DNA from: a virus
Lineage: Duplodnaviria > Heunggongvirae > Uroviricota > Caudoviricetes
Virus record (IMG/VR): IMGVR_UViG_3300024346_000020
Length of the DNA: 64,000 nt
Direction: 5' to 3' (one strand)
Shown here one piece after another: positions 58,137 to 59,965 of this stretch. Each line of letters opens with the position of its first letter. Within the stretch, counting starts at the first letter, position 1. The notes under the pieces are model-generated. The model saw nothing but the letters and a program-made list of their open reading frames with translations, did not search any database and was not told where the DNA came from. The translations under genes and the position numbers were made by a program.

Positions 58137-58222
58137 TCCCTCTTAGCTCAGTTGGTTTGCATTATGCTTAGAGCAATCGTCTTTTAAACGATGGGTCACA
58201 GGTTCGAATCCTGTAGGGGGAA
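58137..58222 (+). tRNA. tRNA-Lys (anticodon TTT) with an abnormally long D-loop (about 21 nt, extra GCAttaTGC mini-hairpin)
   Basis: Acceptor TCCCTCT/AGGGGGA; D-stem GCTC/GAGC; anticodon arm ATCGT-CTTTTAA-ACGAT; T-arm ACAGG-TTCGAAT-CCTGT; hand-folded. Confidence 0.55.
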
Positions 58223-58225
58223 CAA

Positions 58226-58723
58226 GACTTTTAATATATAAATAAAATTAAAAGTCAATTATGGAAAAATATTGTGGTACATGTAAAGAAGTTAAAAATA
58301 AAACTGAATTCAATAAAAATAAAGGTAGAAAAGATGGTTTAAACTCTATATGTAGAGTTTGTAGTAGGACTAATTCATATAATTATTATAAGGATAATAA
58401 GGAAATAATGAAGCCTATGATAAATGATAGTAAAAGGAAAAGAAAAATTGAAAGAATTAGATATATCTATCACTATTTTATGAAAAATCCTTGTATCGAT
58501 TGTGGGGAAACTAATCCGATAGTATTAGAATTCGATCATAGAGATAATGTTGAAAAGATAGATAATCTATGTGATATGATTAGTGAAGGTGCTGGTCTAG
58601 ATAAAATTAAAAATGAAATAGAAAAATGTGATGTTAGATGTGCGAATTGTCACCGAATAAGAACATCCATACAACAAAATTGGACTATGTTACAATTTAT
58701 ACAATAAAAAAGATTATTAAAAT
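58226..58723 (+). mobile_element. putative freestanding HNH homing-endonuclease insertion within the tRNA array
   Basis: HNH ORF at 58261..58707 sits between tRNA-Lys and the next tRNA; inference from phage precedent. Confidence 0.3.
58261..58707 (+). CDS. HNH endonuclease
   Basis: N-terminal CxxC...CxxC zinc finger (CGTCKEV...CRVCS) and an HNH core (LEFDHRDNVEKIDN...CANCHRIRT). Confidence 0.75.
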   Translation: MEKYCGTCKEVKNKTEFNKNKGRKDGLNSICRVCSRTNSYNYYKDNKEIMKPMINDSKRKRKIERIRYIYHYFMKNPCIDCGETNPIVLEFDHRDNVEKIDNLCDMISEGAGLDKIKNEIEKCDVRCANCHRIRTSIQQNWTMLQFIQ

Positions 58724-58796
58724 ACAGGTCAGCATAATGGTATGCACCAGGTCTCCAAAACCTCGGATGGAAAGAGTTCGACTCTCTTGGCTTGTG
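58724..58796 (+). tRNA. probable tRNA, anticodon CCA (Trp), atypical D-region
   Basis: T-arm AAGAG-TTCGACT-CTCTT; acceptor ACAGGTC/GGCTTGT with two G-U pairs; anticodon arm (C)AGGT-CTCCAAA-ACCT(C); needs software confirmation. Confidence 0.35.
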
Positions 58797-58806
58797 CAAA
58801 TATAAT

Positions 58807-58879
58807 GGACCTTTCGTATAGCTGGTGCGTACGTTGGACTGAAAATCCAAAGGACAGGGCTCGATTCCCTGAGGGTCCA
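58807..58879 (+). tRNA. tRNA-Phe (GAA)
   Basis: Acceptor GGACCTT/AGGGTCC; D-loop with GG; anticodon arm TTGGA-CTGAAAA-TCCAA; T-arm CAGGG-CTCGATT-CCCTG. Confidence 0.6.
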
Positions 58880-58891
58880 CTTTGATGGTAG

Positions 58892-58954
58892 CTTAATGGT
58901 TAAAGCACTTGGTTGTGAACCAAGGGATTGCGGGTTCGAGTCCCGTCTGTCAAC
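58892..58954 (+). tRNA. tRNA with anticodon GTG (His-type) but no G-1; canonical 73-nt fold
   Basis: Acceptor TTGATGG/CTGTCAA; D GCTT-AATGGTTA-AAGC; anticodon arm CTTGG-TTGTGAA-CCAAG; T-arm GCGGG-TTCGAGT-CCCGT; discriminator C. Confidence 0.5.
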
Positions 58955-58961
58955 CCAAAAT

Positions 58962-59034
58962 GGTGATTGTCGTCCAAAGGTCAGGATGCCTCCCTGTGAA
59001 GGAGGAGATGTGGTTTCGAGATCCATCATTCACC
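58962..59034 (+). tRNA. tRNA-His (GTG) with G-1:C73
   Basis: G at -1; acceptor GTGATTG/CATTCAC (one U-U); anticodon arm CCTCC-CTGTGAA-GGAGG; T-arm GTGGT-TTCGAGA-TCCAT; 3' ...C-CA encoded. Confidence 0.5.
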
Positions 59035-59041
59035 CAAATTC

Positions 59042-59115
59042 TCTCCCGTAGCTTAAATGGAGAAAGCCGCATACTTTTAATATGCAGACTACCGGATCGT
59101 ACCCGGTCGGGGGAA
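59042..59115 (+). tRNA. tRNA-Lys (TTT), second copy, with an unusual T-loop ATCGTAC (A54/T58 swapped)
   Basis: Acceptor TCTCCCG/CGGGGGA; D GCTT-AAATGGAGA-AAGC; anticodon arm GCATA-CTTTTAA-TATGC; T-arm ACCGG-ATCGTAC-CCGGT. Confidence 0.45.
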
Positions 59116-59123
59116 CAAAAATT

Positions 59124-59195
59124 GCGGATTTAGCTGAGACGGTTTAGCGTATGGTTGAAGCCCATAAGAGGTCAATTCGATTTTGACAATCCGCA
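59124..59195 (+). tRNA. tRNA-Phe (GAA), second copy (G37)
   Basis: Perfect acceptor GCGGATT/AATCCGC; D GCTG-AGACGGTT-TAGC; anticodon arm TATGG-TTGAAGC-CCATA; T-arm GTCAA-TTCGATT-TTGAC. Confidence 0.6.
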
Positions 59196-59199
59196 CAAA

Positions 59200-59330
59200 T
59201 AGAAAGTAGCTCAATTGGTAGAGCACGTAATCATACTTAGTCAGTCTTTCTCTAAGAAATTAGTAGCAATGAAATAAGTTACTTCGCTCTGTTAAAGCCG
59301 TGGTTGTGGGTTCGAGTCCCACCTTTCTAT
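59200..59330 (+). tRNA. tRNA-like gene interrupted by an approximately 60-80 nt intervening sequence (possible intron); anticodon undetermined (CAT possible)
   Basis: Perfect acceptor TAGAAAG/CTTTCTA; canonical D-arm TAGCTCAATTGGTAGAGC; canonical T-arm GTGGG-TTCGAGT-CCCAC; about 95 nt lie between the D-arm and T-arm instead of about 26. Confidence 0.4.
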
Positions 59331-59471
59331 CAAATAAATAAAAACAAAGAATAAAATTTTAATATATAGTAATATGAAAACAATTATCACAACATCGTCA
59401 AGTTCGTCTAGTCGCTCAAGTAATTTGAGGGAGGTTCTGTTGTGCTCATAATTGATATAAAAAATTAGTAT

Positions 59472-59510
59472 GAAACCCACAGACTTCAAAGTTTGTGGGT
59501 TTTTTGTTTT
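59472..59510 (+). terminator. rho-independent terminator
   Basis: gAAACCCACAgacttcaaagtTTGTGGGTTTtttgttttt. Confidence 0.75.
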
Positions 59511-59514
59511 TAAT

Positions 59515-59589
59515 TGGTTCTATAGTTTAATTGGATAAAACACTCGGTTACGGCCCGAGAGACGTGAAGGTTCGAATCCTTCTAGAATC
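59515..59589 (+). tRNA. tRNA-Arg (ACG)
   Basis: Acceptor GGTTCTA/TAGAATC; D GTTT-AATTGGATA-AAAC; anticodon arm CTCGG-TTACGGC-CCGAG; T-arm GAAGG-TTCGAAT-CCTTC. Confidence 0.65.
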
Positions 59590-59598
59590 ACAAATATA

Positions 59599-59682
59599 TG
59601 GAGAGTAACTGGCTGGATGAAGACCTAGTTTTGAAAACTAGTAAAGGGTAGTACCTTTGTGGGTTCGAGTCCCACACTCTCT
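59599..59682 (+). tRNA. tRNA-Ser (TGA), long variable arm
   Basis: Acceptor GGAGAGT/ACTCTCT; anticodon arm CTAGT-TTTGAAA-ACTAG; variable-arm stem AAAGG/CCTTT; T-arm GTGGG-TTCGAGT-CCCAC. Confidence 0.55.
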
Positions 59683-59694
59683 TCTAAATTACTT

Positions 59695-59781
59695 GGAGAA
59701 GTAAAGCGTAATTGGTATCGCCCCGGTCTTGAAAACCGGTATCGGGAAACTGGTGTGCAGGTTCGAGCCCTGTTTTCTCCG
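59695..59781 (+). tRNA. class II tRNA (long variable arm), anticodon read as TGA (second Ser-TGA-like gene)
   Basis: Acceptor GGAGAAG/TTTCTCC; anticodon arm CCGGT-CTTGAAA-ACCGG; T-arm GCAGG-TTCGAGC-CCTGT. Confidence 0.45.
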
Positions 59782-59786
59782 CAATT

Positions 59787-59872
59787 AGTGAGTAAGCCTT
59801 GATGGTGATAGGGTCTGCCTGGAAAGCAGTGCGTACGTTTAGATGTATAGGGTTCGATTCCCTTGCTCACTA
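59787..59872 (+). tRNA. tRNA-Ser (GGA), long variable arm
   Basis: Acceptor AGTGAGT/GCTCACT; anticodon arm CTGC-CTGGAAA-GCAG; T-arm (T)AGGG-TTCGATT-CCCT(T). Confidence 0.5.
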
Positions 59873-59879
59873 CAAATAA

Positions 59880-59965
59880 GGAGAGTAAACCTTGATGGTG
59901 ATAGGGTCCGCCTGCTAAGCGAGACGCCCGGGAAACTGGGTAGGGTTCGATTCCCTTGCTCTCTT
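59880..59965 (+). tRNA. tRNA-Ser (GCT), long variable arm; paralog of the preceding gene (shared CCTTGATGGTGATAGGGTC D-region)
   Basis: Acceptor GGAGAGT/GCTCTCT; anticodon arm TCCGC-CTGCTAA-GCGAG (one mismatch); variable stem CCCGG/CTGGG; same T-arm as the previous gene. Confidence 0.5.

Follow-up and report, generated by a model that had tools for sequence, protein, structure and literature searches.

To our knowledge, the leader-peptide attenuators described to date regulate genes for biosynthesis, transport or aminoacyl-tRNA synthetases of the same amino acid whose codons are clustered in the leader; leaders testing several amino acids, such as thrL and ilvL, belong to this group. The timing and purpose of transfer RNA (tRNA) expression by phages have been debated for decades, with codon compensation and evasion of tRNA-targeting defences as the usual candidates. 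For the tRNA clusters of phages T4 and T5, codon-matched leader open reading frames (ORFs) or attenuators are not known to us, and a literature search brought up none. According to their abstracts, recent studies treat phage tRNAs as a counter-defence that replaces host tRNAs depleted in infection (PMC10264068, eLife 2023; PMC11555353, Nat Commun 2024). Here, a stretch of 64,000 nucleotides (nt) from the tailed-phage record IMGVR_UViG_3300024346_000020, henceforth referred to as the window, was analysed for the regulation of the tRNA array that it carries at 58137-59965. The array is organised as two tRNA operons, each of which is probably controlled by a transcription attenuator of the ribosome-mediated, leader-peptide type.

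The evidence, all of it computational, lies in the architecture of the two units, a match between leader codons and downstream tRNAs in five leader classes, a covarying alternative pairing between leader and terminator, and a gap behind the terminator too short to hold a promoter. A sequence-only reading of the same DNA had described the tRNA array, an interrupted tRNA and an embedded HNH homing endonuclease, all of which are real, and had missed the two operons with their leaders and terminators.

The window has a G+C content of 29%, and its long DNA matches were solely to the unannotated genomes of uncultured phages LR745206 (634,780 bp; locus L001), LR756504 (636,363 bp) and LR756502 (642,428 bp). 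These three megaphage genomes and 14 IMG/VR loci, the latter fetched with leader-derived DNA patterns, formed the comparative set. Genomes of 634, 636 and 642 kb have been reported as the largest complete phage genomes after one of 735 kb and assigned to the ‘Mahaphage’ clade, with Bacteroidetes as predicted hosts and as many as 67 tRNAs; leaders, attenuation and introns go unmentioned in that paper (PMC7162821).

Leader units and their match to the tRNA cargo

Both units contain a promoter-like motif, a short ORF and an intrinsic terminator, followed by tRNA genes. Unit A (57935-58130) precedes, in this order, tRNA-Lys, an HNH cassette, and tRNAs for Trp, Phe, His, His, Lys and Phe, followed by the interrupted tRNA. 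Unit B (59358-59511) precedes tRNA-Arg(ACG) and then four Ser tRNAs. The features of the two units are as follows.

57935-57947, plus strand: promoter-like motif A, CTTTTAATATATA, 6 nt before the ATG of leader A
57954-58064, plus strand: leader ORF A, 36 amino acids (aa), MRTNSIHTSFSKSFKWFSHKFGCMSMSFSKEDVIVG, with His/Phe/Lys/Trp codons at codons 7-21 (57972-58016)
58094-58130, plus strand: terminator A, a 12-bp stem AAACCCGAACTT/AAGTTCGGGTTT (58094-58123) and a T-tract; first tRNA 13 nt past the stem
59358-59368, plus strand: promoter-like motif B, TTTAATATATA, 5 nt before the ATG of leader B
59374-59451, plus strand: leader ORF B, 25 aa, MKTIITTSSSSSSRSSNLREVLLCS, containing ...SSSSSSRSS...
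59472-59511, plus strand: terminator B, a 14-bp stem (59472-59503) and a T-tract; first tRNA 12 nt past the stem

Terminators A and B were the top matches of the terminator scan. The gap between terminator stem and first tRNA measures 10-21 nt in 8 of the 11 units examined, which is too short for a separate promoter, so the tRNAs would be reachable only by terminator read-through. The motif TTTAATATATA is present in 12 copies in the window where 0.73 would be expected (16-fold over), at 5933, 17337, 26096, 27482, 33059, 35689, 45509, 49188, 54591, 57937, 58230 and 59358. All 12 copies lie upstream of an ORF on the same strand, at distances of 4-6 nt, 20-24 nt or, once, 108 nt, and the 4-6 nt motif-to-ATG spacing of both leaders is common to long ORFs of 317, 248, 557 and 1549 aa. 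The motif is probably a phage promoter, and the 4-6 nt spacing class suggests leaderless or near-leaderless mRNAs. Unit B (59392-59508) gave a sub-threshold Rfam match to His_leader (32.4 bits against a gathering score of 49, E=0.0085), which probably reflects a shared attenuator architecture rather than homology; unit A matched no Rfam leader family.

Some 75-90 nt upstream of motif A are kept between the window (57862-57935) and LR745206 (L001 4010-4088), with the elements AAATTAGGTAGATA...TTTGTA...AATAACAAAAA. This stretch includes an element of the TAnnTTTG type at about 57890-57897, which is similar to the -7 consensus of Bacteroidota promoters and may be a second, host-type promoter.

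The regulatory codons of each leader correspond to the tRNAs behind it. Codons 8-16 of leader B (59395-59421) read TCG TCA AGT TCG TCT AGT CGC TCA AGT, that is, eight Ser and one Arg, and are readable by its own array through Ser(TGA) for TCA and TCG, Ser(GGA) for TCT, Ser(GCT) for AGT and Arg(ACG) for CGC. The same unit architecture recurs in the three megaphage genomes and the 14 IMG/VR loci, and the leader shifts with the cargo. Five leader classes were found in total, A and B in the window and Leu/Ser/Cys (class C), Tyr/Glu (class D) and Ile/Gly/Ala (class E) in the relatives. Class A leaders (..HxxFSKSFKWF..) precede His, Phe, Lys and Trp tRNAs, and class B leaders (..SSSSSSRSS..) precede Arg and Ser tRNAs. 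The class C leader of LR756504, MKAMILSLCLSLSLSLQKL, has the codons TTA AGT TTA TGT CTA TCG TTA TCG CTA AGT TTG..CTT ahead of Leu(TAA), Leu(TAG), Ser(TGA), Cys(GCA), Ser(GCT), Ser(GGA), Leu(CAA) and Leu(AAG). Class D leaders (YESYYEE, YYYEAE, GYTGYEGAY) stand before Glu and Tyr tRNAs, and class E leaders (ISIAVIGNGAGAI, ISVGVIAIGAG) before Ile(TAT) and Gly(TCC), with Ala further downstream. In locus L012 a leader reading ...IEAIGYAYEAG... is followed by Tyr, Glu, Ile, Gly and Ala tRNAs.

Cognate codons were counted over whole leader ORFs and compared with local codon usage by binomial tests, and the classes were combined by Fisher's method:

Leader B of the window: 10 of 24 codons cognate, 0.093 expected, P=2.8e-5
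Class C leader: 14 of 28 codons cognate, 0.165 expected, P=4e-5
Class B leader of locus L020: 10 of 23 codons cognate, 0.058 expected, P=2e-7
Leader A of the window, interrupted tRNA read as CAT: 14 of 35 codons cognate, 0.152 expected, P=3.5e-4
Leader A of the window, interrupted tRNA read as Asn: 13 of 35 codons cognate, 0.225 expected, P=0.036
Leaders of classes D and E: whole-ORF P of 0.02-0.09

In the regulatory zone of leader B, 9 of 12 codons are cognate (P=9e-8). The five classes combined gave P=3e-9 when whole ORFs were counted and P=8e-14 when the count was confined to the 12 codons ahead of the antiterminator zone, and the true pairing of leaders with arrays was the single best of 120 permutations. 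When the tRNAs behind both units are considered together, 21 of the 35 codons of leader A are served locally against 31.8% expected (P=5e-4). We lean slightly towards a wider reading of these data, in which the megaphages carry a modular family of ‘decoding-capacity sensors’ whose leader ORFs would probe particular codons and, where these are read slowly, turn on just those tRNA genes that are needed.

The conservation pattern points to translation of the leaders. The ORF of leader A is conserved in nine distinct relatives with its N-terminal reading frame maintained. Among seven class B sequences, the indels within the ORF are 27 and 3 nt long and those in the spacer 2-3 nt, and the stop codon occupies the same alignment column in 7/7. 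Ser positions of leader homologues swap between AGY and UCN codons; therefore, the amino acid or the tRNA family is what is conserved, and not an RNA motif. From frame conservation, Ser-box swaps and motif spacing, we infer that the leaders are translated. These observations bear on a different kind of switch, one sensing a signal other than stalling, either by T-box-like contact with a tRNA or by a phage or host RNA-binding protein on a conserved hairpin. A conserved hairpin is indeed present over the regulatory codons (TAAGTCG..TGGTTTA in class A, TCGCTCAA..TTGAGGGA in class B), but an Rfam search over 57700-60100 returned no T-box match at E<=1 and no other riboswitch, the maintained frame and the interchange of the two Ser boxes favour decoding over an RNA motif, and specificity for several amino acids would be hard to achieve with a single specifier. 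Such a switch is considered very unlikely.

Alternative pairing and ribosome position

The predicted alternative fold of each unit joins a strand in the 3' part of the leader ORF (segment 2) to a strand that includes part of the terminator 5' arm (segment 3):

58010-58038, plus strand: segment 2 of unit A, the 5' strand of the antiterminator, inside the ORF at codons 19-29
58077-58105, plus strand: segment 3 of unit A, spacer and terminator 5' arm, with segment 2 or the terminator 3' arm as partner
59433-59450, plus strand: segment 2 of unit B, from RNAalifold, comprising the final sense codons and a portion of the stop codon
59468-59485, plus strand: segment 3 of unit B, overlapping the terminator 5' arm

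In the proposed mechanism, transcription would start at the phage promoter-like motif a few nt before the leader ORF, whose central codons are those read by the downstream tRNAs (His/Phe/Lys/Trp, probably with Asn, in A; Ser/Arg in B). Quick decoding would carry the ribosome onto segment 2, the terminator hairpin would form and transcription would stop 12-13 nt before the first tRNA. Scarcity of a cognate aminoacyl-tRNA would instead stall the ribosome and leave segment 2 free to pair with the terminator 5' arm as an antiterminator, and RNA polymerase would read through into the tRNA genes. Candidate causes of scarcity are the AT-rich codon demand of the phage, host shut-off and host anticodon nucleases such as those treated in PMC10264068 and PMC11555353, and the newly made tRNAs would relieve the stall and close a negative-feedback loop.

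The duplex between 58010-58038 and 58077-58105 has a predicted energy of -19.4 kcal/mol (RNAduplex, z=-4.6), and 0 of 300 dinucleotide shuffles were as stable; duplexes of this type in five relatives gave z values of -4.5 to -5.6. With the short terminator arm alone, RNAduplex gave no signal for unit B of the window (z=0.2) or for L003A and L012, and alignment-based covariation was therefore needed. RNAalifold recovered the antiterminator in classes A and B from transcripts ending before the terminator 3' arm. The class A core, GTTCGG:CCGAAC, was recovered with compensatory changes, from AGTTCGG:CCGAACT in most genomes to AACTTGG:CCAAGTT in L012; over its 6 core pairs, 92.6% of alignment cells are paired and 3 pairs are compensatory, with 2 of 500 shuffles scoring as well. 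In class B the variants ATTCGA:TCGAAT, GTTCGA:TCGAAC and ATCCGA:TCGGAT were observed; over 12 pairs, 89% of cells are paired (15-46% in slid controls), 4 pairs are compensatory, and the covariation score was reached in 0 of 500 shuffles. Own-versus-cross duplex matrices were set aside because arm lengths differ between units.

In all 11 units, the native upstream sequence sequestered the terminator arm to a greater extent than shuffled sequences did on average, and the shuffles that did as well numbered 1 of 200 for unit A of the window and 0 of 200 for class C. Ribosome geometry was examined by an in-silico simulation of the ribosome footprint on nascent RNA ending at the terminator loop; equilibrium folding of full-length leaders with a sliding ribosome mask had been uninformative and was replaced by this analysis. 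In both window units, the terminator 5' arm was sequestered (P ~0.7-1.0) when the A site was on the regulatory codons (codons 1-15), and sequestration fell to ~0-0.5 when the footprint lay over segment 2 (codons 17-22 of leader A, codons 18-23 of leader B). In class C, arm sequestration was 0.40 without a ribosome and ~1.0 with a ribosome stalled on the Leu/Ser/Cys run; this stall requirement implies a fourth, anti-antiterminator segment. The regulatory codons are located directly upstream of segment 2 in every class.

This placement, together with the covarying pairing of the 3' part of the ORF with the terminator 5' arm, is not predicted if the units are simply translated small genes, or stable small RNAs, with codons co-adapted to the local tRNAs and tRNA expression by basal read-through without a switch. 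That account draws on the translated appearance of the leader ORFs and on terminated attenuator leaders that act in trans as small RNAs or peptides, for which the abstracts of PMC7968998 and PMC6614838 give rnTrpL/peTrpL as an example. The leader peptides nevertheless show no sequence conserved between classes save the cognate residues, and we regard co-adaptation without a switch as improbable.

Several results weigh against the attenuator model itself. In full-length RNA at equilibrium the terminator dominates whatever the ribosome position in 10 of 11 units, class C being the exception, so the switch would have to be kinetic; the choice between terminator and antiterminator is likewise kinetic in classical attenuators. 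Sequestration of the terminator arm in unit B of the window was matched by 12 of 200 shuffles, and the shuffled AU-rich background already stands at ~0.5. The ORF of leader A extends ~26 nt (8 sense codons) beyond segment 2, a less classical arrangement, and the simulations suggest that the antiterminator of unit A could re-form behind a ribosome that has moved past segment 2. The codon match of leader A is modest when the interrupted tRNA is read as Asn, and the matches of classes D and E are weaker than the others. Class A leaders are rich in Ser codons, for which the cognate tRNAs belong to the following operon and not to their own. Homologous units across genomes are not independent, and the independent observations are the five classes only. 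Within unit A, the HNH cassette brings a promoter motif of its own (58230-58240), and the stretch from the cassette to the Trp tRNA gave no match in the terminator scan; the motif may therefore drive the seven downstream tRNAs and bypass attenuator A. Finally, every step of the dynamic model, from leader translation and stalling to read-through and the physiological trigger, is an inference.

The equilibrium result, in which the terminators are simply strong hairpins, would also fit an ordinary tRNA array with a homing endonuclease, as supposed in the sequence-only reading; in that case the ORFs arise by chance, the terminators are leaky or end upstream units, and the tRNAs are made constitutively for AT-rich codons. 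Free-standing HNH genes in tRNA arrays are common among large phages, and AAT, AAA and TTT, all frequent codons, can be read by anticodons of the array. Left unexplained by this account are the five leader classes that track five cargos, the conserved leader frames, the covarying ORF-to-terminator pairing, and a strong terminator 12-13 nt ahead of the first tRNA with no promoter between. We assign it a low probability, and attenuation by the leaders remains the preferred reading.

tRNA genes, the interrupted tRNA and the HNH cassette

The array comprises 13 tRNA-like genes: two Lys, one Trp, two Phe, two His, one Arg, four Ser and one interrupted gene.

58137-58222, plus strand: tRNA-Lys(TTT) copy 1, partial Rfam match at 58156-58215 (33.6 bits), D-loop ~12 nt too long
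58724-58797, plus strand: tRNA-Trp(CCA), ARAGORN, slightly non-canonical with a short D-loop
58807-58880, plus strand: tRNA-Phe(GAA) copy 1, ARAGORN, Rfam 57.1 bits
58882-58957, plus strand: tRNA-His(GTG) copy 1, ARAGORN, Rfam 65.2 bits, T at position -1
58963-59035, plus strand: tRNA-His(GTG) copy 2, ARAGORN, Rfam 47.2 bits, G at position -1 and C73
59042-59116, plus strand: tRNA-Lys(TTT) copy 2, ARAGORN, Rfam 51.7 bits
59124-59196, plus strand: tRNA-Phe(GAA) copy 2, ARAGORN, Rfam 57.7 bits
59200-59331, plus strand: interrupted tRNA, ARAGORN with introns allowed, structured insert of ~55 nt between D-arm and anticodon arm
59516-59591, plus strand: tRNA-Arg(ACG), ARAGORN, Rfam 61.6 bits
59598-59684, plus strand: tRNA-Ser(TGA) copy 1, ARAGORN and Rfam
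59695-59782, plus strand: tRNA-Ser(TGA) copy 2, ARAGORN, Rfam 37.9 bits
59787-59872, plus strand: tRNA-Ser(GGA), Rfam match at 59788-59871 (36 bits), anticodon loop CUGGAAA, no ARAGORN call
59879-59965, plus strand: tRNA-Ser(GCT), Rfam 42.7 bits, anticodon loop CUGCUAA, no ARAGORN call

ARAGORN at default settings called nine tRNAs (58724-59782), and the Rfam covariance models, used with an E-value threshold, added Ser(GGA), Ser(GCT) and the partial match at 58156-58215. Thus 12 of the 13 genes were detected without the intron option, the three Rfam additions at or above the gathering score, and the thirteenth was found when an insert of 51 nt was allowed. The hand-folded count of about 13 genes in the sequence-only reading is confirmed by these programs, as are its two Lys(TTT), two Phe(GAA), two GTG (His) and one Arg(ACG) assignments and the single interrupted gene. 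Trp(CCA), proposed there with a question mark, is supported by the ARAGORN call and an anticodon loop that is invariant in relatives; its Rfam score of 27.4 bits lies below the gathering score of 29. Four Ser tRNAs are present as proposed, and the one listed as ‘TGA-like’ carries TGA like its neighbour. Ser(GGA) and Ser(GCT) are the paralogs they were taken to be and, at 78% identity, the sole pair to reach that level. The same-anticodon pairs noted as duplicated isoacceptors do exist; the Lys, Phe, His and Ser(TGA) pairs are each 60-65% identical within the pair, and by this measure they are old, divergent genes and no recent copies.

The anticodons of the array cover 31.8% of codons in the long ORFs of the window, including the common AAT, AAA and TTT, and most top codons (GAT, TTA, GGT, GAA, TAT, ATT) have no matching tRNA in it; the suggested fit to AT-rich codon usage is thus only loosely supported. 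In-silico removal of 10-19 nt from the D-loop of Lys copy 1 yielded 182 ARAGORN Lys(TTT) calls. G at position -1 opposite C73, as in His(GTG) copy 2, is a usual feature of bacterial tRNA-His. The two His(GTG) copies thus diverge at a key identity element and may not be charged or processed alike. His(GTG) copy 1 is the only gene of the array with an encoded CCA. In the 3' flanks (58797-59970), the discriminator base is followed by CAA, mostly CAAA or CAAAT, in place of CCA in 10 of the 13 tRNAs, and this conserved trailer may be a processing signal. Relatives contain tRNAs of 81-89 nt that ARAGORN calls as Lys(TTT/CTT) and Glu(TTC) (L001 5021-5286, L003 4567-4836, L020 39162-39247); their long variable arms are class II-like, which is unusual for Lys and Glu.

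The interrupted gene is most likely a tRNA-Asn(GTT) in which an insert of ~51-70 nt separates position 26 from the anticodon arm, as judged from alignment with its homologues in L015/L016 (96-100% identical), L004 and L012 (72-73%). The acceptor, D and T arms are kept with compensatory changes, the downstream CTGTTAA loop is invariant, and the insert has a covarying closing helix (ACTTA:TAAGT, TCTCT:AGAGA or ACTC:GAGT) with a single asymmetric bulge of 4-5 nt on one strand. An in-silico deletion scan returned Asn(GTT) as the commonest and sole consistent ARAGORN call, in a scan that is permissive and weakly discriminating. The ARAGORN reading of Met(CAT) with an intron in the anticodon loop was rejected, since the CAT loop varies (CAAATAC in L012) and CTGTTAA does not. 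No intron family was found for the insert in an Rfam search, and it resembles neither a group I intron nor the archaeal bulge-helix-bulge type, in which two 3-nt bulges flank a helix of 4 bp at the exon-intron junctions. Over-long tRNA-like genes of 103-124 nt were also observed at L010 ~4400-4520, L018 45525-45648 and L020 38573-38675. The L010 insert ends in GAGTTACTTCG, compared with AAGTTACTTCG in the window, and the anticodon loop downstream differs; one insert type may be common to several different tRNAs.

58228-58707, plus strand: mobile cassette with its own TTTTAATATATA motif (58230-58240) and HNH ORF (58261-58707, 148 aa)

The ORF at 58261-58707, already recognised in the sequence-only reading as an HNH endonuclease between the first two tRNAs, matched PHROG 2255 ‘HNH endonuclease’ (E=4.7e-31) and PHROG 3106 (E=1.7e-20), contains the residues CxxC...EFDH...N...CxxCH, and gave no Pfam match at E<0.01. 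As expected for a mobile endonuclease, its presence is polymorphic among related genomes. It is missing in L006, L008 and L014, the first two passing straight from tRNA-Lys to Trp, and in L009 and L013 an 87% identical HNH gene occupies another array position, directly after terminator A. Because of this polymorphism, the cassette is taken to be a mobile, free-standing element that has entered unit A between its first two tRNAs, and it is incidental to the regulatory design of the array. The enlarged D-loop of Lys copy 1 was considered as a scar of HNH insertion, and this was rejected since L014 carries a 100% identical tRNA-Lys in the absence of HNH. In the Leu/Ser/Cys array of LR756504 (L002 4380-5060), a larger, different ORF with two CxxC...CxxCH-type motifs separates Ser(GCT) from Ser(GGA); this ORF probably encodes a further endonuclease of the HNH type, in which case nuclease insertion into these arrays would be recurrent.

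A phage-encoded tyrosyl-tRNA synthetase (TyrRS) gene (55247-56503, plus strand) is located 1.5 kb upstream of the array, with matches to Pfam tRNA-synt_1b (E=2.8e-79) and a SYY C-terminal domain. The window contains no Tyr tRNA; in relatives, Tyr tRNAs sit behind Tyr/Glu leaders. Synteny with the TyrRS gene was dropped as a handle for finding relatives, since L001 has none upstream. On the minus strand downstream, two large convergent ORFs (59999-61792, 597 aa, and 61792-63984, 730 aa) consist of many short Gly/Asn/Thr/Ser-rich repeats (e.g. ..NTTTGNIG.., ..NTAIG..) and probably encode fibre or adhesin-like structural proteins. Four small ORFs near the array matched neither Pfam nor PHROGs.

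Comparison with known systems

The array resembles the tRNA regions of T4 and T5 in being a dense tRNA cluster of a large lytic phage with a mobile HNH gene present in some relatives only. It also carries Lys and other tRNAs of kinds that are typical nuclease targets. The abstracts of the counter-defence studies deal with tRNA sequence features and rescue and mention no sensing circuit (PMC10264068, PMC11555353). A demand-sensing attenuator, if confirmed, would make such tRNA rescue inducible: this phage lineage would gauge the decoding of particular codons directly and make tRNAs on demand, in itself direct evidence for a limiting supply of tRNAs in the course of infection. The circuit could be an inducible answer to tRNA cleavage by host defences or to the host shut-off that the phage itself imposes, would be reprogrammable codon by codon, and would offer compact, codon-specific, programmable sensors for synthetic biology. 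The correspondence of leader codons with tRNA cargo is in addition a sequence signature for annotating regulation in uncultured viral genomes.

Like T-box riboswitches, the proposed units would couple translation-related genes to the status of specific tRNAs through a choice between terminator and antiterminator. The T-box binds uncharged tRNA via a specifier codon without translation, whereas the conserved reading frames found here point to ribosome-dependent sensing.

In a full-text search, with most subscription journals outside its coverage, no phage or bacterial tRNA gene was described as controlled by a leader-peptide attenuator, and attenuators that regulate tRNAs themselves are not otherwise known to us. 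The closest counterparts are the classical attenuators of amino-acid operons and of pheST, namely trpL, hisL, pheL, thrL, leuL, ilvL and pheM. Shared with these are a 5' short ORF with clustered regulatory codons, an intrinsic terminator ahead of the genes under control, and an antiterminator that competes for the terminator 5' arm so that only one of the two can form, with ribosome position selecting the fold; as in trpL, the stop codon of class B leaders lies within segment 2. The mechanism class is that of the textbook; new, as far as we can tell, are its target, the matching at the level of codons and the existence of a modular family. In contrast to the classical systems, the regulated genes here are tRNAs only, which decode the regulatory codons, rather than genes for biosynthesis, transport or synthetases, so that the loop would control decoding capacity itself. 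The units are phage-encoded and modular, with at least five codon-specific classes in one genome type. The regulatory codons are matched per individual codon box. Such a system would extend classical attenuation from metabolite supply to the translation apparatus.

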